From IMG/VR virus record IMGVR_UViG_3300027792_000010: 64,000 nucleotides of DNA; one strand, given 5' to 3'. The stretch comes from a virus. Below are positions 22,279 through 43,208 of this stretch, piece by piece. The position numbers and the translations under genes are program-made. A model generated the notes under the pieces. It had not been told where the DNA came from and ran no database searches. It worked only from the letters and a program-made list of their open reading frames with translations. The number at the start of each line of letters is the position of its first letter. Position 1 is the first letter of the stretch.

Positions 22279-22707
22279 TTAATTACTACATTTCCAGGAT
22301 GTTTTGGTACCACCATCGTATGATTTAGCATATCCTAATTTAATTAATTCTTTTGCAAGGTCTGATCCATCTACATAGATATCAGCATCTATTCTAAAGT
22401 ACTTATCTCTAGACATTCTTTTAAGTTCTATCTTTTTTGCATTTTTAAATTTAGCTATTACATAGTCACGTACTTCTATAGCTAAAATTTTTGAGCACTC
22501 TTTTCTTATTTCCGGGCAATCTACTCCTCTAAGTCTAATCCCAACATTAGTGCCTATAATAGGAGGAAAATCTTTTAAATTAACATAGTAGGTATCTCCA
22601 TCATAGACTCTTAAGATTCTCTCTATAACGGCATCCCCATAAAACACTTCTGCAGAATAGGCTGAATATAAAGCCAATAATATGACAATTGTGATAATTT
22701 TACGCAT
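22279..22707 (-). CDS. thermonuclease (SNase) family protein with signal/TM helix
   Basis: VYDGDT, IRLRGVDCPE, DKYFR. Confidence 0.9.
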   Translation of the reverse strand: MRKIITIVILLALYSAYSAEVFYGDAVIERILRVYDGDTYYVNLKDFPPIIGTNVGIRLRGVDCPEIRKECSKILAIEVRDYVIAKFKNAKKIELKRMSRDKYFRIDADIYVDGSDLAKELIKLGYAKSYDGGTKTSWKCSN

Positions 22708-22722
22708 AGCTAAAGTTCCTTA

Positions 22723-23616
22723 TTAAAAGTTGAAGTCATTAACTTGAAGTACTGTTATCCCTAACCCTCTAAAGAGTTTACAGACTTGTGGCCTATCATC
22801 CACTGCGAATAATACTTGATACTCAGGCTCTACTATGGTATGATACAGTTCTTCTTTTACGATAGAATCTTTTCTGGAATCCCCTGTAATTCTCATGATA
22901 AGTTTTTCATAGGGTACATTATGTTTCATTAACCAATTAGCTGTGGCATCCCTACAACTATCATCCCTACCAGACATAATTATAATCTCAAGCCCTGCCT
23001 CATAAAATAGATTAACAAGATATGCCACATACTCATCGAGGGTATCTTCCTCTACAAGGTCATAGGCATAGTAGTCCCTACCGCTGTAATTTAGGGCAAG
23101 AGTACCATCTAAGTCAATTATGACAGCATCTTTTTTTTCTGGATGGCTTATGAAAGCTTTTCTTACAGGGGGGAAATAAGCATCTCGTACTTCTACTTTT
23201 CTACCTCTGATATATTTATTAAACATATTCTCGATAATATGGGCGGGGACTATTTTTTCTCTTTTGGAGTTATTCTCCTGGGCCTCTTTAAGAGTAACTT
23301 CAAAGTATTTCTCAAATACCCGTACATCTCCCATTCTTTTCGCAATCTCACATATAGCCTCGTATGTTTTCTCACTCAGGTTAGTATCATCTATTATTAC
23401 ATCAAGACCTTTAGCTAAGCATTGCTCGATAAGAACATCTCTCACATTGGTGATGAAATTTTCATTAACTGTGTTATGCACATCATTATCAAGCATTACT
23501 CTAAGAAGGTCTTTATTTATCCTTTTATATTTCCCAGGATACTTCATTAGCATTTCTTTAGCCCAGGTACTCTTTCCTGATCCAGGTAATCCTCGTAATA
23601 ATATAATTATGCGCAT
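22723..23616 (-). CDS. T4 PseT-like polynucleotide kinase/3'-phosphatase
   Basis: RGLPGSGKST, INKD.LR; DLDGTLA, SGR, DDRPQV. Confidence 0.92.
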   Translation of the reverse strand: MRIIILLRGLPGSGKSTWAKEMLMKYPGKYKRINKDLLRVMLDNDVHNTVNENFITNVRDVLIEQCLAKGLDVIIDDTNLSEKTYEAICEIAKRMGDVRVFEKYFEVTLKEAQENNSKREKIVPAHIIENMFNKYIRGRKVEVRDAYFPPVRKAFISHPEKKDAVIIDLDGTLALNYSGRDYYAYDLVEEDTLDEYVAYLVNLFYEAGLEIIIMSGRDDSCRDATANWLMKHNVPYEKLIMRITGDSRKDSIVKEELYHTIVEPEYQVLFAVDDRPQVCKLFRGLGITVLQVNDFNF

Positions 23617-23618
23617 AT

Positions 23619-24254
23619 TTAATTCCTCAATTTATTAGGGACTACAGGTTTACTCATCCAATGTTCATCTGTTTGAACATGTCCTGAACGTACATATTTA
23701 ATATGATATTTACTAAAATCATTATACGGTATTTTGTCTGCTAACCTAACAACATACCCCTCTACCTCGTCTGTAGAATTTTTACAGTATTCTTCATATT
23801 TTTCATGTATAAGTTTTCTATCGTATATTCCTTTATAAAATACGTCTACTGTTTCTAACTCCAGTAAGCTTGCCCATGTGATTGTTTCATTCCATGATAC
23901 GGCTTCATTATATTCGTTAAATACAGTATAAAGATAAAAATAACTTTTTAAATTATTATAATGTATAGAGTGCGTTGCATATAGATTCTCACCGCACAGT
24001 CTGTGCCCCGGTGGTATTAAGTATCCTATTTTTCCATGTAACGACTTTATCCATACTCTCGAAGGATGCATCGCCGAATCTATAGATCTTGCATGTACCT
24101 TAGATGTGTACAAAGAAGATGATTCACCATCAACTTTTATACTACCTATTATTTCCTTTCCTTCAAAAACCGTTTCATTCTCATGCCTCCTGTCATCATT
24201 TTGTAGATTAGGAGAATCAGAAAAATGATATATACGTGGAAATTTATAATACAT
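23619..24254 (-). CDS. ATP-dependent RNA ligase family protein
   Basis: KFPRIYH, motif I KVDG, GENLYATHSI.Y, EGYVVR, KYVR. Confidence 0.85.
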   Translation of the reverse strand: MYYKFPRIYHFSDSPNLQNDDRRHENETVFEGKEIIGSIKVDGESSSLYTSKVHARSIDSAMHPSRVWIKSLHGKIGYLIPPGHRLCGENLYATHSIHYNNLKSYFYLYTVFNEYNEAVSWNETITWASLLELETVDVFYKGIYDRKLIHEKYEEYCKNSTDEVEGYVVRLADKIPYNDFSKYHIKYVRSGHVQTDEHWMSKPVVPNKLRN

Positions 24255-24299
24255 ATTTTTTTCTTTCCTGGGTTTTCCGTATTTTATTTCTATGCATCC

Positions 24300-24548
24300 T
24301 CAAAATGCATCCTCAAAAAACATAGCCACAAGTTGATCTGCTGGATTCATTTCCTCTATATCAGCTTGTACTAAACTAACTTTCATTTCCATATATGATT
24401 TAAGTTTTTCCATATATTCAGGTGTAACTTCTAAAAAATTATAATGGAATCCTGGGTGTATAACCACACTTTTTACTTTGTCCCCATTGTAGATTTTGTA
24501 ATCTAATTTCTGAAGAAACTCTTCAACAGTTTGCTTTTCTTTTTTCAT
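24300..24548 (-). CDS. hypothetical protein
   Basis: ORF with RBS. Confidence 0.55.
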   Translation of the reverse strand: MKKEKQTVEEFLQKLDYKIYNGDKVKSVVIHPGFHYNFLEVTPEYMEKLKSYMEMKVSLVQADIEEMNPADQLVAMFFEDAF

Positions 24549-24561
24549 TTAGTTACCTTTT

Positions 24562-25263
24562 TTAATCCTGTTGATAGCCTAATAAATCAAACAAAGCTCT
24601 ATGAGACCTCTTTTTTGGATTATAATTGAATCTCATAATAACCATATCACCTTTCCTTTGTGAAGGGGTGAAAGGTTTTCTGATAAGCCTTAGTCCTGCT
24701 TCCTCTGGAGTCTGGTTCTTTTTAATAACCACATTACAATGAAAACACGCAGTTACACAGTTATCAAAAGTGTTCTTACCGCCTCTTGATGTAGGCTGAA
24801 TATGATCGATAGTCCTATCTTCAGAAGTACACCTGTACTTATAAGGTTTGCATGGGGTCTCATACCCATTTTTATCAATTATATATTCATGATAGTACTG
24901 ACAAATATTATCATCTCTATTATAAATAGCAGTTTCACTAAAAGCCACAGTATCTGACTTAACCTTGTAACCGACGAACTCTATCAATCTAACAATAAGG
25001 GGCATCTTTAGCCTTACAACAAATTGATTATCCTGATCGAATATACACATCTTCTCAGAACCCCTAACATCAAGTATCCCATTGAGGAACTTATTGCGAG
25101 GATCTGAAGTTCCTATGATACGTTCATCATCGACTTTGATAATCTCTATTACTTTCCTGCTAAGAAGACTAAAGAATCTTTCAAGGTTAATCTCATCCCA
25201 GAAATGATAGCTCTGGTTTAGAACAACAATAGATGCACTCATATAGGCACCACTCCAATCCAC
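24562..25263 (-). CDS. HNH endonuclease (McrA-like)
   Basis: RD...CQY; TIDHIQPTSRGG.NTFDNCVTACFHCN. Confidence 0.9.
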   Translation of the reverse strand: MDWSGAYMSASIVVLNQSYHFWDEINLERFFSLLSRKVIEIIKVDDERIIGTSDPRNKFLNGILDVRGSEKMCIFDQDNQFVVRLKMPLIVRLIEFVGYKVKSDTVAFSETAIYNRDDNICQYYHEYIIDKNGYETPCKPYKYRCTSEDRTIDHIQPTSRGGKNTFDNCVTACFHCNVVIKKNQTPEEAGLRLIRKPFTPSQRKGDMVIMRFNYNPKKRSHRALFDLLGYQQD

Positions 25264-25356
25264 ATAAAAAAGACCTTCTTCCTATAGCACAGGTTTCGAT
25301 CTTTTATTATTAAATTAGTTGAATACAATATTACTTCCTCTCAAGCCACGGTTCGA

Positions 25357-26241
25357 TTAATAATCACCTTCTGCTACCTGAAACACTGGAAGTCCTAGCT
25401 CCCTATACATTTTAACGTTTCTCACTCGGTCCTCCCAGACGCTGAGGACATTGTACTTACCCTTAAAGTTCTGCTCATACAACTCCTGTTTGACTTCAAC
25501 ATCTGGTCTACGATCCCCAGTAGGTCTCATGTATATCTTATCAAACTGAATATTGTTCTTTATGAGCCACTCTTTTGTAACGTCATAGAATTTATCTTCC
25601 CTACCTGTAACAATAAATATTAAAAGATTAGGGTACATAACTTTTAGAGCATTAACAGCACATGCCACAGGCTCATTTCTCTTGTCTTTATATGAGCTAC
25701 CTGTGTCATATGGACTTCGCCCTTTGATTAGAGCTAATGTACCATCCATATCCACCAAAATACATACAGGGAGTCCGTCTATAGGCTTATATTCTGTCTT
25801 AGACTGCGCCTCCTCTGCTTTATCTGATTTGTACTGCTTCAGCATACGGTATATGACTGCGAGACCCACACGGGCTATCCCTGTGCGCATAGCATCTCTT
25901 GCTATGCACTCTTCAACTGGAATATCCATAAAGCTCTTGTACTCATACTCAGCCTTCCCAGCCAGAAACTCTTCCATTTTCCTTCTGGTATTTGCATTAC
26001 AGAAAGTCTCATCGACTATGACATTGAGATCTTTCGCCAATGCCTCCAGAATAAGTCTGTCCCTTTCGGCAAGTACTTGCTTCTCTACTTTGTTGTTGAA
26101 CTTGTAGTCTGGTCCTCCAAACTGGATACGGAGGTCATCGCGGTTCACACGGACCCAATTAGGGTTCTGTGCTATGAACTCTTTCGCCCAGGTGGATTTA
26201 CCACTTGCTGGAAGCCCTTGTAAAAGAAGTACTTTATTCAT
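25357..26241 (-). CDS. second T4 PseT-like polynucleotide kinase/3'-phosphatase
   Basis: GLPASGKST, VNRDDLR; DMDGTLA, TGR, EDR. Confidence 0.92.
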   Translation of the reverse strand: MNKVLLLQGLPASGKSTWAKEFIAQNPNWVRVNRDDLRIQFGGPDYKFNNKVEKQVLAERDRLILEALAKDLNVIVDETFCNANTRRKMEEFLAGKAEYEYKSFMDIPVEECIARDAMRTGIARVGLAVIYRMLKQYKSDKAEEAQSKTEYKPIDGLPVCILVDMDGTLALIKGRSPYDTGSSYKDKRNEPVACAVNALKVMYPNLLIFIVTGREDKFYDVTKEWLIKNNIQFDKIYMRPTGDRRPDVEVKQELYEQNFKGKYNVLSVWEDRVRNVKMYRELGLPVFQVAEGDY

Positions 26242-28995: not shown

Positions 28996-30313
28996 GTTCA
29001 TAAAAACTTGGACAAATCCAAATTAGTATGTCTTTGTTCTTGAGGGACGGTAGACTCCTCAATCGATCCAAAATGAAGTATATTTTTAGATGCATTATAA
29101 TCTGCATCACATGTATACCCACAAGATATACACTCATATACTTCTCCTTGTCTTGAATCTTTGTGGGTCTCCCCACAAGATGAACATCTCTGAGAAGTAT
29201 AAGCAGGAGATATTTTGATCAGATGAACACGGTTCTCTTCACAAATATCTTCGATCCTTCTATACACTTGTCTCAGGTTCCAATGAGCCTGTTCAGCTCT
29301 TTGAAATTTGTTCATACGTCTTTCTTGACGTGTTTTATGATTCATATTTATTAAATCCTCCATGACTACAGTTTTGTATTCATGGAGGTTAAGTTTCTTT
29401 ATCTCACAATCTATATAATCTTTCAAACTATTTAACGCTTGATTATAGTTCTTACTATGCTTCTTTTTTCTTAATAAATTCTGGATTTTAGAAGTTATCT
29501 CGGTACCGAGGAAACGACCATCAGAACATGAAAATAATTTATTTCTTCCAAGGTCTATTCCTAATGTTTTAAACTTAGCTATTGGGGTATCTTGAATATC
29601 TTTTTGAAAGAATAAGTTTGCATAGTACCTGTTTTGTTCTTTATTAAAATATAGTGTTAGGGATTTAGATAAGGAATAGCCACTATTACATAACTTATTA
29701 TACTGTCTATGCTTATGAGATGGAAGTATAAGTGAAAACCTGTTACCAAAAATGGAACCAAGTCTGATCCACAGGTCAAAACTTGAAGAAGTTTTTGACT
29801 CTTGTACATGGCATAGGTCAGAGTTTAGTTCTATAGTAGAACCATCAAATATAGGTTTATTTATTCTCGGTCTAAAAGTTTTACCTTTAGACCAAACAGA
29901 CCACGTTTTATTTACTATGGGATATTTTTTCTTCTTAGATTTAGCTTTAGCGTATATTTTTTTATATTTTGAATATATTCTTTTTTTATTATTAGTGTGA
30001 GCTGATTTAAGTATTTTCATAGCTTGATTACCTGCACACTTCATAGCTTTACCAAGTAACCAAGAGTATATTTGTTTATAGTGATTTGAGTTTATTTTAG
30101 AAGGTAGTTTTTCTTTTAACCAGTACAGGTCTATAAAGACATTAACGACTCTTTGATATTCTTCAAAGAATGATTTAAGTTTATCGATTTTAAAATTAGT
30201 AGCCTCATTCAAGGATACTTGAGATCGTTTAATAAGTTTCATAGTATTTATAGCCAAGTAAGAAATGTATAATATTATCTAAATATGTCTAAATTTTCTT
30301 TAAATAGTTTCAA
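28996..30313 (-). mobile_element. non-autonomous IS607-like element carrying only tnpB
   Basis: flanked by GG at both junctions (GGAGGG|TTGAAAC...AAGTTTTTATGAAC|GG); tnpB fills the element; no TnpA. Confidence 0.75.
28998..30242 (-). CDS. tnpB: RNA-guided endonuclease TnpB (Cas12f-like)
   Basis: RuvC GIDLG, VMEDL, PAYTSQRCSSCG, CISCG..DADYNASKNI; ATG 30242 (ORF track starts 30257). Confidence 0.9.
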   Translation of the reverse strand: MKLIKRSQVSLNEATNFKIDKLKSFFEEYQRVVNVFIDLYWLKEKLPSKINSNHYKQIYSWLLGKAMKCAGNQAMKILKSAHTNNKKRIYSKYKKIYAKAKSKKKKYPIVNKTWSVWSKGKTFRPRINKPIFDGSTIELNSDLCHVQESKTSSSFDLWIRLGSIFGNRFSLILPSHKHRQYNKLCNSGYSLSKSLTLYFNKEQNRYYANLFFQKDIQDTPIAKFKTLGIDLGRNKLFSCSDGRFLGTEITSKIQNLLRKKKHSKNYNQALNSLKDYIDCEIKKLNLHEYKTVVMEDLINMNHKTRQERRMNKFQRAEQAHWNLRQVYRRIEDICEENRVHLIKISPAYTSQRCSSCGETHKDSRQGEVYECISCGYTCDADYNASKNILHFGSIEESTVPQEQRHTNLDLSKFL

Positions 30314-32448: not shown

Positions 32449-32462
32449 CTCCTTATTTATAG

Positions 32463-32535
32463 TGGAGCCTGAGGGGATCGAACCCTCGACCTTTGGCTTG
32501 CAAAGCCAACGCTCTCCCAATTGAGCTAAGGCCCC
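32463..32535 (-). tRNA. tRNA-Ala(UGC)
   Basis: TTGGC-TTTGCAA-GCCAA, G3.U70. Confidence 0.95.
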
Positions 32536-33122: not shown

Positions 33123-33203
33123 AGCCGGATGAGGGACTCGAACCCCCGATGCCTTGCGGCGCTTGATTACAAGTCAAGTGCAGTACCACTCTGCAAATCC
33201 GGC
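33123..33203 (-). tRNA. tRNA-Thr(UGU) with long variable arm
   Basis: CTTGA-CTTGTAA-TCAAG; V region CGCCGCAAGGCAT. Confidence 0.85.
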
Positions 33204-33457: not shown

Positions 33458-33585
33458 CTTAAACTTACTCCTGAGGGTTTTCAACCCTCTGTTGTTTTTA
33501 TAAACATATAATTGGACTCGAACAGACGGCTTGATCCTTATTACCAGAATTTTAGCCCTTAACCATAATGGAGGTCTGATCTAAC

Positions 33586-33750
33586 CTATTTTACTACTAA
33601 CCACTTAAATAATCCATAAAAAATAGTAATTACAACTGCTCCCGCCAAGGGAGACTCACTCTTCAATCTCCAGGCTATTAGGGTCGAAAGAATCCAAATG
33701 CATATTAATAGAATATGCGCCCCGGTAATTTGTGAGACGATGTGATCCAT
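33586..33750 (-). CDS. 54-aa two-TM membrane protein (below ORF-track cut-off)
   Basis: AGGAG RBS, MDHIVSQITGAHILLICIWILSTLIAW... Confidence 0.5.
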   Translation of the reverse strand: MDHIVSQITGAHILLICIWILSTLIAWRLKSESPLAGAVVITIFYGLFKWLVVK

Positions 33751-33849
33751 AAAGCTCCTGTTTTTAATGTACTACTTGTTCATTTATATTCATAATAAAA
33801 CCTGCATGGTTGGTTCCCATAAGCATCATCAATAGCACCTATGATAAGT

Positions 33850-34047
33850 TTATGCATTTAATACCATATTTACCTTTATATGCTTTAGAGGAGTCGATAG
33901 AGCGACATACGTATGTAACTCTACTTCTCCTGTAAAAGAATTGGCATCTATATCATAGGAAAATCCTTGATTTTTAGTCGTAAAGAACCTTCCTAGTATA
34001 TGTGCTTGTTCTATTTCTTTTTCGAATTTTTTGAGAGCTTCACCCAT
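33850..34047 (-). CDS. hypothetical protein
   Basis: short ORF with AGGA RBS. Confidence 0.5.
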   Translation of the reverse strand: MGEALKKFEKEIEQAHILGRFFTTKNQGFSYDIDANSFTGEVELHTYVALSTPLKHIKVNMVLNA

Positions 34048-34288
34048 ATATCATTTCCTATTCTGATATTCAAAAGTGCATAGTGAAGACATATATAATT
34101 ATGCGTTCAAGCTTATTATGTTTCTAAGTCTATATCTCTAAAGTGTATAGATAGCTGATAAGTGCGCAGTATAAACACTCGTACAGCACTGACGTTTTTT
34201 ATGCTTGGCTTGTTGGTCGCAAGTCTCTTAGGACCCACTTGGTACTCCTATTACGGCGGCACCTACAAGTTGCCAGGGAATCGATTCT

Positions 34289-34432
34289 CCGATCTATAAA
34301 ACTTACTCAAAACCAACAGGAGTTAGTTTTGATGTTTATTTCTTGCTTCATAGAAACAGCTTTTAAGTTTTAGGTCCTTAAAAGTCTTACACTTTCTCCA
34401 CAAGCTTAAGTTCCGGTCGATCTGACCGTACC
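34289..34432 (-). ncRNA. orphan IS607/TnpB omegaRNA-like right end
   Basis: TACGGTCAGATCGACCG..GCTTGTGGAG..GTAAGAC..GCTGTTTCTATGAAGCAAGAA..hairpin..AAGTTTTATAGATCGG; shares GCTGTTTCTATGAAGCA with the end at 63931-64000. Confidence 0.65.
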
Positions 34433-34530
34433 GATAACTCATATCCCCGAAGGGAAAGGAGGTATCGTTATTCGAAAGGATAAACTCTTACGGTTAAACC
34501 TATTTGATTCTAACCAGCCCTTAAAGTCTA

Positions 34531-34542
34531 TGTCAAAGAACT
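34531..34542 (-). promoter_or_regulatory. boxA-like motif GTTCTTTGACA (copies 34531-34542, 34848-34859, 42680-42691)
   Basis: three exact copies, all on the transcribed strand of tRNA array 1; resembles rrn boxA. Confidence 0.55.
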
Positions 34543-34931
34543 AATACCTACTTGTTTTTCGTAGGCATACTTAATATACTTCTTGAATAATTAAAAATTA
34601 AATATTTTTATTAATAGCCTTGAGTAAATTTAATTATATTTTGTATAAATTTATGTGACTGTTAGATTCCCTACATATCTACCTTATAACCGTTGAGGCT
34701 ATAGACTGATACTCCTCTTATGCTCTATTAGCACCACTTCTCATCCGTTTGCATTGAAGCATAGATACATTTTCATAGATGAGATTTATTGCTTCATTTC
34801 CGGGTAGTGTATACCCATGCATCACTATGCACTTTTCAATACCAGAATGTCAAAGAACAGATACTGACTACAGATTCGAACTACCCTAATTTATTAGCCA
34901 ACTTAAGGGTATTCGTATCTTTAAAACTTAA

Positions 34932-35040
34932 CGGAGGGTGAGGGATTTGAACCCCCAAACCCGTAAGGGTGACGGTTTTCGCCGGAACATCTCATGGGTG
35001 TGCCGACAAGACCGTTGACTTACCATTAGCCTAACCCTCC
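34932..35040 (-). tRNA. tRNA-Ser(UGA) with 27-nt hairpin insertion in the anticodon (34980-35006)
   Basis: ACGGT-CTTG[27 nt]AAA-ACCGT, long V arm, G73. Confidence 0.88.
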
Positions 35041-35138
35041 GATTATTGAGTCGGAACCGACCACCGAGGTAAACCTCGCCACCAGGGAGTTGGTCCATTT
35101 CTGGAATGATAGCTTTTTTAACGCCCTGCCGACTCCTT

Positions 35139-35576
35139 TTAAACTTTCTCCCAACTCTCTACTACACCTTCAATAGATTTAAAGATAGGGTTTACATCAG
35201 GTACCCCTATATTTTGTATTTTTTGCAATCTATCTGGATCTCTTATCTTCAATTTACTTTTAAGATGGTCAAACTCATACAGAATTTGCCCAGTAGATAC
35301 GGTTATCACACTGCTTTCTTTCACTATCCTCTTTATAACTATTTTATCTACACTATATCTGTATCCCCTTTTTTTAGCTTCATCGTATATGGTATATAGG
35401 TAGTTACAGATAGTATACACAGGATCTGAAGTCTTTTTGAACCTCTCAAGCTGCGGGTGATTTTTATATCCCACGGTTCTACTCAGTAATACATCCTGAG
35501 CTAGAAGTCCCTCTCTCCAGCAAGCTGTTAATCCCTTAACATCCAGATACTTTGGGTGTATACTCCATAGCCTCAT
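35139..35576 (-). CDS. pyrimidine-dimer DNA glycosylase / endonuclease V family
   Basis: MRLWSIHPKYLD.KGL.A.WREGLLAQ, GYKNHPQL.RF, EA.KRGY. Confidence 0.88.
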   Translation of the reverse strand: MRLWSIHPKYLDVKGLTACWREGLLAQDVLLSRTVGYKNHPQLERFKKTSDPVYTICNYLYTIYDEAKKRGYRYSVDKIVIKRIVKESSVITVSTGQILYEFDHLKSKLKIRDPDRLQKIQNIGVPDVNPIFKSIEGVVESWEKV

Positions 35577-35957
35577 TTATTTTTCAATCTCCATGCGCCA
35601 GTAAACTATTGGAAGTAATTCTTTTTCTATAGTCCCTAATTCTTTTGGCAGCTGCTCCAAGGATATATCATACATAAGATACTTTAATTTTCTATGAAAG
35701 TCCACACTTGTTTTTGTACTTACTTGTATAGTCTGACCCCTGACTATAACTTTCGAAGTTTTACCAAAGTCAGAAAAGGTTACGTTATCATCAATGACTA
35801 TTTCTGAGATATCTATTAGATATCTCTGGAAGTCCTCATTATCGAACTGCACATGCGTGAGTACTTTTACAAGATTATTCAATTTACTTTCTTCAAGTAT
35901 AGGAATAAGTTTTTTAAAATTTTCTTTAGTGTAGTAAGTAGATATAACTATTTCCAT
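35577..35957 (-). CDS. hypothetical protein
   Basis: ORF with GAAGGAG RBS. Confidence 0.6.
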   Translation of the reverse strand: MEIVISTYYTKENFKKLIPILEESKLNNLVKVLTHVQFDNEDFQRYLIDISEIVIDDNVTFSDFGKTSKVIVRGQTIQVSTKTSVDFHRKLKYLMYDISLEQLPKELGTIEKELLPIVYWRMEIEK

Positions 35958-41037: not shown

Positions 41038-41187
41038 AGGCTCAAAGACTCCTGATACGATCAGCTTACCATCATCAGTTTCACCTACAACTGTTAAGGT
41101 AACAGTACTCCGTTTGCTTTTAGCATGGGGGTGTCTCCTTTTCTATTTATATTACAAGTTTTTCATATGGATTACAATTATTTTAAA

Positions 41188-41271
41188 CAAGTGCGGAGGG
41201 ACTCGAACCCCCACAGACTCAAAGAGTCACGGTTTTGGAGACCGCTGAACTACCTATTATTCTACGCACTT
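41188..41271 (-). tRNA. tRNA-Trp(CCA) with long variable arm
   Basis: GCGGT-CTCCAAA-ACCGT; V region GACTCTTTGAGTCT; A1-U72, G73. Confidence 0.85.
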
Positions 41272-41463
41272 ATGTTTATTTTCATGTATGTCATGTACAC
41301 TATAGACAATTGTGGTAATTTTTTCTGCTTGATTCAATATTGATATTAATCTTTGTTTTATCTTTTCGTCAGTGGCAGATAGAAGTAATAGTTCAGCATT
41401 TCCGATGATACAGCATAGAGCGTTACAGATATCATGATGTTCTTTCATGATTAACCCCCTCAT
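41257..41463 (-). CDS. stand-alone HisKA-like phosphoacceptor fragment
   Basis: HDICNALCCIIGNAELL resembles H-box HD.NN.L..I.G.AEL. Confidence 0.55.
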   Translation of the reverse strand: MRGLIMKEHHDICNALCCIIGNAELLLLSATDEKIKQRLISILNQAEKITTIVYSVHDIHENKHKCVE

Positions 41464-41643: not shown

Positions 41644-41755
41644 TGGTGGTAGAGAGAGGATTTGAACCTCTGTACCCCGAAGGGAGCGGATTTGCTAAGT
41701 TCACCGCTCGGATGAACTTAACAGTCCGCCGCTTTTTCCACTCAGCCACTCTACC
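41644..41755 (-). tRNA. tRNA-Tyr(GUA) with 27-nt hairpin insertion in the anticodon (41694-41720)
   Basis: GCGGA-CTGT[27 nt]AAA-TCCGC, long V arm, G1-C72, A73, CCA. Confidence 0.88.
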
Positions 41756-42970: not shown

Positions 42971-43009
42971 AAAACAAAAAACCCCGCTTCAGTTTCCTGG
43001 GCGGGGTTT
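42971..43009 (-). terminator. intrinsic terminator of attenuator 1
   Basis: AAACCCCGC...GCGGGGTTTTTT; 5' arm can instead pair with TGGGTGGG (43047-43054). Confidence 0.85.
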
Positions 43010-43037
43010 CGTATTTTTTCTGGTTTACCAGTTTACG

Positions 43038-43151
43038 TCAAGTTTTCCCACCCACCACTATATTATTACAGAGTAAATATGACAATAACCATGCGGCTGC
43101 TGTATGCAGCTTGGTCATTGTCGAACATAGTGTAGAATGGACTTTTTTCAT
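43038..43151 (-). CDS. 37-aa leader peptide of tRNA array 1 (MKKVHSTLCSTMTKLHTAAAWLLSYLLCNNIVVGGKT)
   Basis: between promoter and terminator; 21 of codons 5-28 are cognate to downstream tRNAs. Confidence 0.85.
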   Translation of the reverse strand: MKKVHSTLCSTMTKLHTAAAWLLSYLLCNNIVVGGKT

Positions 43152-43179
43152 TTTAAATACCTATTACCTTTCAATTTAT

Positions 43180-43208
43180 AATATACCATTTTGTAGAACC
43201 AAGATCAA
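43180..43208 (-). promoter_or_regulatory. sigma70-type promoter TTGATC-N17-TATATT for leader 1
   Basis: 25/29 identical to the leader-2 promoter; extended -10 TG. Confidence 0.8.

Follow-up and report, generated by a model that had tools for sequence, protein, structure and literature searches.

The window, a 64,000-nt stretch of viral DNA, resembles a huge phage in its gene content, with about 19 tRNA genes on one strand, many matches to PHROGs, and genes for topA, def, YqeY, TnpB, ribosomal protein S21, Cpn10 and HPr. A 190.9-kb JGI contig contains identical DNA, as do Logan contigs of freshwater-sediment origin. At 34932..35040 of the minus strand lies an interrupted class II tRNA-Ser(UGA) gene of 109 nt (82 nt minus the insert). 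Read from the sequence, its 5' exon (35007..35040, minus strand; tRNA positions 1-35) ends in C32 U33 U34 G35. A 27-nt hairpin insert, here called a mini-intron (34980..35006, minus strand), follows and is supported by folds, by covariation and by a search model built without it. The 3' exon (34932..34979, minus strand) contains A36 A37 A38, the 3' half of the anticodon stem, the variable arm, the T arm, the acceptor strand and G73, and does not encode CCA.

The surrounding tRNA arrays have several features of their own. Long variable arms are found on tRNAs that normally belong to class I, namely Trp(CCA) with 86 nt, Thr(UGU) with 81 nt, Asn(GUU) with 86 nt and, in relatives, His(GUG) with 86 nt; the loci concerned are 41187-41272 and 33123-33203 in the window (both minus strand), L089:3167-3252 and L009:1283-1368. 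A tRNA with a CUA anticodon (an amber suppressor, labeled 'Pyl' by ARAGORN) lies about 2.5-2.6 kb past the window end in the same phage (L089:6938-7010), which may point to TAG recoding or to the suppression of stop codons of the host. Two TnpB genes (IS605 OrfB / Cas12f-like) are located among the tRNA arrays, at 28998-30257 (minus strand) and L089:8346-9602.

The Rfam model RF00005 matches positions 34932-35040 (minus strand) with 44.9 bits (gathering score 29) over its full length (model positions 1-71), and 30 nt in the anticodon loop are left unaligned. By direct reading, the body has a 7-bp acceptor stem, G73, a 4-bp D stem (GGCU/AGUC), a long variable arm, and a standard T arm with the T loop UUCAAAU. 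The anticodon arm reads ACGGU-CUUG-[27 nt]-AAA-ACCGU. When 35006..34980 is removed, the loop becomes the 7-nt CUUGAAA with the anticodon UGA, which is absent unless the 27 nt are taken out. The 18-mer across the predicted junction CUUG|AAA (ACGGTCTTG followed by AAAACCGTC) is absent from the DNA. The observation of an interrupted tRNA-Ser(UGA) gene is confirmed, and the Rfam match and the direct reading agree with the position, the length and the 35/36 site given in the preliminary description. As G is found at both ends of the insert, the cut in the Ser gene taken by itself could be placed at 35/36 or one base to the left (34/35); the relatives described below resolve this ambiguity.

Folded as a whole, the gene gives a minimum-free-energy cloverleaf in which the anticodon stem continues into the insert. 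Positions I1-I10 of the insert pair with I16-I25, with mismatches at I5/I21 and I9/I17, and I11-I15 form the loop. The tail (I26-I27, CG) pairs with G35 and U34, exactly as had been proposed for the last two bases. The insert alone has a fold z of +0.16 in respect to shuffles, and the complete arm a z of -1.74, with 10 of 200 shuffles equally stable. Since the folding energy is no better than that of shuffled sequences, the support for the Ser hairpin comes from comparison with the relatives, whose covariation backs the hairpin previously drawn from this gene.

A second interrupted gene, tRNA-Tyr(GUA), is located at 41647..41755 (minus strand; Rfam, 52.6 bits). It is of class II with the bacterial long variable arm, its CCA is encoded at 41646-41644, and its insert (41694-41720, minus strand), supported by its fold and by the same search model, likewise has 27 nt and follows position 35. 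The fold of the Tyr arm is well separated from shuffles (z = -5.95). An insert-free tRNA-Tyr(GUA) is present in two relatives (L010, L011), in the conserved order Leu(CAA)-Tyr-Trp-His-topA. ARAGORN run without introns missed the Ser gene. With introns allowed, it reported Asp(GUC) i(39,15) and Asn(GUU) i(38,27) for the two genes; these names were rejected on the class II bodies and on the corresponding slots of relatives, which hold Ser(UGA) and Tyr(GUA).

The UGA reading is supported by relative L157, because there an insert-free tRNA-Ser(UGA) occupies the matching slot (L157:1722-1810), followed by DNA 88% identical to window positions 34858-34668. The interval 33484-34932, between the S21 gene and tRNA-Ser, comprises about 1.45 kb without an ORF longer than 65 aa; it is conserved in L157 (81-88% identity), and an RNA-library contig covers 34029-34264 within it. 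In relatives with a TopA 92% identical (L009-L011, L120-L126), every contig ends about 260-275 bp past a 123-aa gene (the homologue of 35577-35957), short of the Ser slot. A break shared across many samples and assemblers points to a repeat, or to a site that varies between strains.

Short contigs of related phages (L130-L133) were reached via homologues of the neighboring peptide deformylase, and they carry further inserts in tRNA genes that are uninterrupted in the window. The window's tRNA-Ala(UGC) (32462..32535, minus strand) has an empty site, and so has its tRNA-Thr(UGU) (33123..33203, minus strand). In L130, tRNA-Ala(UGC) contains 28 nt after G35; its exons are identical to the insert-free Ala of the window at 73 of 73 positions, interrupted by one clean 28-nt gap (alignment A1), the flanks differ, and one register only restores UGC. 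The Thr orthologues in L131 and L132 (window counterpart 33203..33123) contain 27 nt after G35 of tRNA-Thr(UGU), the tRNA-Ala(UGC) of L132 is likewise interrupted by 27 nt, and in L133 an insert of 27 nt lies inside the tRNA of the Thr slot. The window Thr differs from its L131/L132 orthologue also by an additional GCAA-capped hairpin in the variable region. The alignments show that the same tRNA exists as insert-bearing and insert-free alleles. In total there are at least seven inserts (Ser, Tyr, two in Ala and three in Thr), five of them in related phages.

The Ser insert is not an assembly artefact, because the same DNA including the insert was assembled from other samples (L007; runs X2, X3). 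DNA runs from other samples and years contain both the Ser and the Tyr insert unchanged. A DNA variant, 41714 G>A, converts the C7-G19 pair of the Tyr insert to U-G and keeps the pair.

Judged by their common plan, the seven inserts are one family of 27-28-nt hairpins. All seven can be drawn with 12 pairs, two between exon and tail and 10 within the insert (about 10 stem positions; 9 in L133), closed by a loop of 5-7 nt. In each of them the 2-nt 3' tail pairs with the two exon bases preceding the 5' junction, which are UG or GU throughout; the two exon-tail pairs are held in all seven as UA, GC, UG or GU (four or more pair types). In an alignment (A2) of the two exon bases before the junction and the insert of each sequence, 86.9% of the cells are paired, compared with 65.4% in column shuffles, and the observed value is reached in none of 500 shuffles. 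Changes on both sides are present in 7 of the 12 pairs, and slid controls have at most 50% of the cells paired. Twelve G-U pairs favor the tRNA-sense strand (86.9% paired vs 76.2% antisense). The mismatch at I5/I21 is itself conserved (six of seven), C7-G19 is invariant in A2 and A8-U18 is near-invariant (six of seven). This pattern of changes shows that the structure of the insert RNA is conserved.

A covariance model (R2) built from the five inserts of other phages only, with Ser and Tyr left out, gives a single match in 95.7 kb of this phage, the Ser insert (22.6 bits, E = 0.0016). With filters off, over 15 kb, its top two matches are the Ser insert and the Tyr insert (20.7 bits), both in exact register, and the next match has 10.3 bits. 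The preliminary description had called the Ser insert unrelated to the Tyr insert; that model recovers both, and they belong to one family. The full model (R1) confines the element to anticodon loops over 190 kb of the clade, where all seven copies lie, with no match outside these loops and none in 1.1 Mb of unrelated DNA. A blastn-short search with the Ser and Tyr inserts found no further copy in the DNA collected, each being single-copy, and no INPHARED phage matched the Ser gene. In IMG/VR, a TopA protein search and four DNA patterns returned no family member, the matches being ordinary tRNAs, chance hits and some phage tRNAs, unrelated, that carry inserts of other kinds; one pattern run against GTDB species genomes matched 23 times, never in a tRNA. 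An origin as a miniature transposon (a MITE or an IS200-IS605 derivative) was rejected, given that all seven copies sit in anticodon loops, the inserts are single-copy, and TnpB is present but TnpA was not seen. By their distribution, the hairpin inserts are a mobile family sitting only inside the tRNA anticodons of this huge-phage clade.

The unrelated IMG/VR phage contigs with other tRNA inserts (L103:5345-5449; L100:4062-4181, minus strand; L099:1431-1537) carry a Leu(UAA) with 19 nt on the 5' side in the anticodon loop, a Met(CAU)-like tRNA with about 26 extra nt, and a tRNA whose D loop holds a hairpin. Short tRNA inserts of various designs seem to be common in large phages.

The inferred junctions, which are not mapped cuts, are staggered by 2 bp with a 3' overhang within a continuous helix, so that excision would yield a hairpin with a 2-nt 3' overhang. 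They are fixed by the insert-free alleles for Ala and Thr, by the expected anticodon and class II body for Tyr, and by slot and body for L133; the Ser gene fits the same arrangement. The helix order common to the members is the 5-bp anticodon stem, pairs 32/38 and 33/37, the 3' cut, the two exon-tail pairs, the 5' cut, and about 10 insert pairs, with one extrahelical base (N36; U34 in L133) absorbing the register difference. A pair between U33 and A36, drawn earlier for the Ser gene, is probably not general: in Ala and Thr, N36 is C or U and bulged and U33 pairs with A37, and Ser and Tyr can fold likewise. For L133 the stagger rule picks register 36/37, giving UGU as the slot predicts; the alternative register (UGC) was rejected, the tRNA body being without G3:U70.

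In the transcript the insert prolongs the anticodon stem, giving a single long helix in which the anticodon is buried. From this geometry we propose that a double-strand-specific endonuclease would cut both strands with the 2-bp stagger, releasing the overhanging hairpin. The cutter may be RNase III-like and come either from the host or from another part of the phage genome. An ATP-dependent RNA ligase of the phage would then seal the nick that remains between positions 35 and 36, two Pnkp enzymes healing the ends first should the cutter leave 5'-OH and 3'-phosphate, and the tRNA would mature only where the phage sealing enzymes are present.

Candidate sealing enzymes are encoded on the same genome. 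An RNA ligase gene (23619..24254, minus strand) matches PF09414 (Pfam, E = 5.7e-24) and phrog_24030 in PHROGs; the 211-aa product aligns to the C-terminal two thirds of phrog_24030 only and is maybe shortened or split. A second PF09414 ligase of the same phage is located at L089:3909-4895 (Pfam, PHROGs). Searches of solved structures with both ligases gave no match. Of two Pnkp paralogues, one adjoins the ligase (22723..23616, minus strand; PF25109, PF13671; phrog_505, 3.7e-85) and the other lies at 25357..26241 (minus strand; phrog_505, 2.1e-83; PF25109). Directly downstream of the ligase and Pnkp follows a gene for an SNase-fold nuclease (22279..22707, minus strand; PF00565, 7.2e-08; phrog_452, endonuclease). 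The whole RNA-repair string (22279-26241, minus strand) runs Pnkp, HNH endonuclease, an 82-aa ORF, RNA ligase, Pnkp and the SNase-fold nuclease.

Bacterial RNase III leaves 2-nt 3' overhangs with 5'-P/3'-OH ends, requires a cut-to-loop distance of at least about 11 bp, and has a minimal hairpin product of 28 nt (PMC1540722), a size that the present hairpins share. Such ends would fit the phage ligases, since 5'-P and 3'-OH are the ends that PF09414 ligases join. The helix on the insert side has 10 stem positions (9 in L133) and possibly a stacked closing pair, with one or two mismatches, set against a minimum of 11 bp for the E. coli enzyme (PMC1540722). No RNase III gene was found among the scanned ORFs of the window or the Pfam calls of another 18 kb (about 82 kb of a genome of about 190-200 kb), so RNase III would have to come from the host or from a gene elsewhere. 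Several points count against this proposal. The Ser hairpin, no more stable than shuffled sequences, contains two internal mismatches, and the tRNA-side helix next to the cuts is short and bulged. Ligases of the PF09414 (Rnl2) type are known for sealing duplex nicks rather than breaks in loops. The identification of RNase III as the cutter is, on the present analysis, a tentative one that we hold to be possible but short of even. The explanation as a whole, a mobile hairpin mini-intron with an RNase III-like staggered cut and sealing by a phage ligase, we regard as standing at an even chance.

The main alternative, itself somewhat unlikely, keeps the excision and changes the enzyme: a dedicated endonuclease, probably phage-encoded, would recognize conserved hairpin features and generate 5'-OH ends together with 3'-phosphate or cyclic phosphate, which Pnkp would heal and the ligase seal, on the pattern of tRNA repair in T4 or tRNA splicing in fungi. 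To our knowledge, all known protein-dependent tRNA splicing pathways use ends of this kind, which speaks for such a nuclease, as do the two full Pnkp paralogues flanking the ligase and the SNase-fold nuclease that is the next gene in the same direction. The conserved I5/I21 mismatch with C7-G19 and A8-U18 resembles a protein recognition site, and could mark a dedicated protein rather than a general double-strand RNase; the same conservation may equally stem from recent common descent. The analysis identified no candidate for this enzyme; the SNase-fold nuclease might be weakly put forward as an alternative cutter from gene order alone. Sets of Pnkp and ligase are also common in phages with intron-less tRNAs (PMC7824862), which makes their presence non-discriminating, and a 2-nt 3' overhang with an arm of about 10-11 bp would already suit RNase III, with no new enzyme needed.

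Both kinds of cutter presuppose that the insert leaves the RNA. It was also considered, as an improbable reading, that it is never removed, and is either a selfish or neutral insertion inactivating a dispensable tRNA or part of a non-decoding RNA (a decoy for anticodon nucleases, or a source of tRNA halves). Two things suit this reading: dispensable tRNAs are frequent in phages, and a buried anticodon would withstand anticodon nucleases. Spliced RNA was not seen in the wetland metatranscriptome runs X11 and X12, available as contigs only and containing small parts of the region: no contig crosses a spliced Ser junction, though contigs cannot prove that spliced RNA is absent, and an RNA-library contig from X12 (34974-35175) carries the intact Ser insert, being either precursor or contaminating DNA. 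Joints listed in the X11/X12 matches were rejected as splice junctions, as they are chimeric matches to other tRNAs. The conservation of the exons argues in the opposite direction. Between L131 and L132 the surrounding DNA is about 76% identical, whereas the Thr exons are identical at 72 of 72 positions and the insert differs at 4 of 27; two of these four differences keep a standard pair, one breaks A1-U25 and one falls at the I5/I21 mismatch. L130 and L132 differ in their Ala exons by a compensatory replacement in the anticodon stem, U28-A42 to C28-G42. The exons are also identical to those of the insert-free alleles, which are necessarily ordinary tRNAs, and no other Ser(UGA) or Tyr gene was found in the approximately 82 kb of phage DNA read.

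These comparisons show that the exons of insert-bearing genes are still under selection, and because the exons stay conserved, splicing of the insert-bearing tRNAs is very probable. The most economical reading is that the insert is taken out of the RNA, since an anticodon buried in a helix cannot decode. The covariation over seven inserts, taken with the conserved exons, also supports the earlier suggestion that the structure is selected for one processing machinery. A further argument of the preliminary description, that the codons of a leader point to functional tRNAs, is weak. A short leader ORF, followed by a G+C-rich hairpin and a U tract, does lie upstream of the tRNA array (42971-43208, minus strand), and it holds one TCA and one TAT codon (at about 43150..43036); the presence of these codons does not show that the tRNAs work. 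The best explanation of 35006..34980, as far as DNA comparisons reach, is a mini-intron of a working phage tRNA-Ser(UGA) gene, and we think it probable that the Ser insert is spliced by proteins.

That the insert is instead an archaeal or eukaryal bulge-helix-bulge (BHB) intron, or a self-splicing or self-cleaving RNA, is hardly credible: the anticodon-loop location is that of BHB and group I tRNA introns, but by hand neither anticodon-restoring register gives two 3-nt bulges 4 bp apart, the helix is continuous save for a 1-nt bulge, the site is 35/36 and not 37/38, tRNA-Tyr has the bacterial long variable arm among genes of bacterial type (def, topA, S21), and 27 nt are far below any group I or II core, with Rfam reporting tRNA only, even at E up to 1. 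The likeness to BHB introns would extend to short length, splicing by proteins, a place in or near the anticodon, and cut sites set by pairing with the anticodon region; the differences are the lack of the bulge-helix-bulge itself, the site (35/36 or 36/37), the stagger (2 bp, compared with 4 bp plus bulges) and the bacterial setting. Group I introns are likewise mobile and found in the anticodon loops of bacterial and phage tRNAs, but they exceed 200 nt and have a catalytic core, which the 27-nt insert, with no Rfam intron match, does not.

The closest description is that of the "enigmatic" introns in the tRNAs of Lak megaphages (Devoto et al. 2019; PMC6784885). Those introns too interrupt the anticodon loops of tRNAs in huge phages (Tyr-GTA and Thr-TGT among them), are too small to self-splice, are present or absent among relatives, and have no known mechanism (PMC6784885). 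They are neither group I nor BHB introns, a loose descriptive class into which the Ser insert falls as well. The single Lak intron compared, in tRNA-Tyr(GTA) of genome A1, has about 93 nt, and one Lak intron is tRNA-like, whereas the present inserts are plain 27-28-nt hairpins with a 2-nt tail on the anticodon; no sequence similarity between the Lak intron and the hairpin family was found. Lak phages are associated with gut Prevotella, the present phages with freshwater sediment and wetland. Literature searches returned no mechanism for huge-phage tRNA introns after the 2019 report, and neither phage tRNA introns of a hairpin type nor a tRNA splicing that depends on RNase III turned up in them.

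RNase III excises the intervening sequences of 23S rRNA; they differ from the present inserts in that no re-ligation follows and the rRNA stays fragmented, whereas a tRNA cut in its anticodon needs sealing. The likeness to RNase III substrates is that a hairpin is released by two cuts with a 2-nt stagger and a 3' overhang (PMC1540722), the cuts being inferred in our case. For the sealing step the nearest parallel is the PrrC pathway of T4, in which the phage enzymes Pnkp and Rnl1 repair a broken tRNA anticodon loop by healing and sealing the ends (background in PMC7824862); the present phage has two Pnkp and two RNA ligases. The T4 break is damage by a host defence nuclease, whereas here it would be a programmed step of maturation, and the T4 ligase is Rnl1, whereas the ligases found here are of the PF09414 (Rnl2-like) type.

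In general, the hairpin family is defined by exact junctions from allele pairs, a covariation-backed fold, a predicted cut geometry, and candidate sealing enzymes on the same genome. For annotation it means that standard tRNA finders miss or misname these genes, as in the Asp and Asn calls of ARAGORN. As far as we know, bacteria and their viruses splice tRNAs only via self-splicing group I introns. The inserts may represent a third, protein-only route of tRNA splicing in bacterial viruses, a suggestion that is on balance doubtful: mobile hairpin introns that pair their 3' dinucleotide with the anticodon would be cut by ordinary RNase III and the exons rejoined by a phage repair ligase, tRNA maturation and perhaps resistance to anticodon nucleases would depend on phage enzymes, and the elements would spread among tRNA genes with U and G before the junction. 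If RNase III and a repair ligase do act in this way, the RNA-repair enzymes of phages would gain a second, constructive role, and housekeeping RNases could suffice for a new class of mobile introns.
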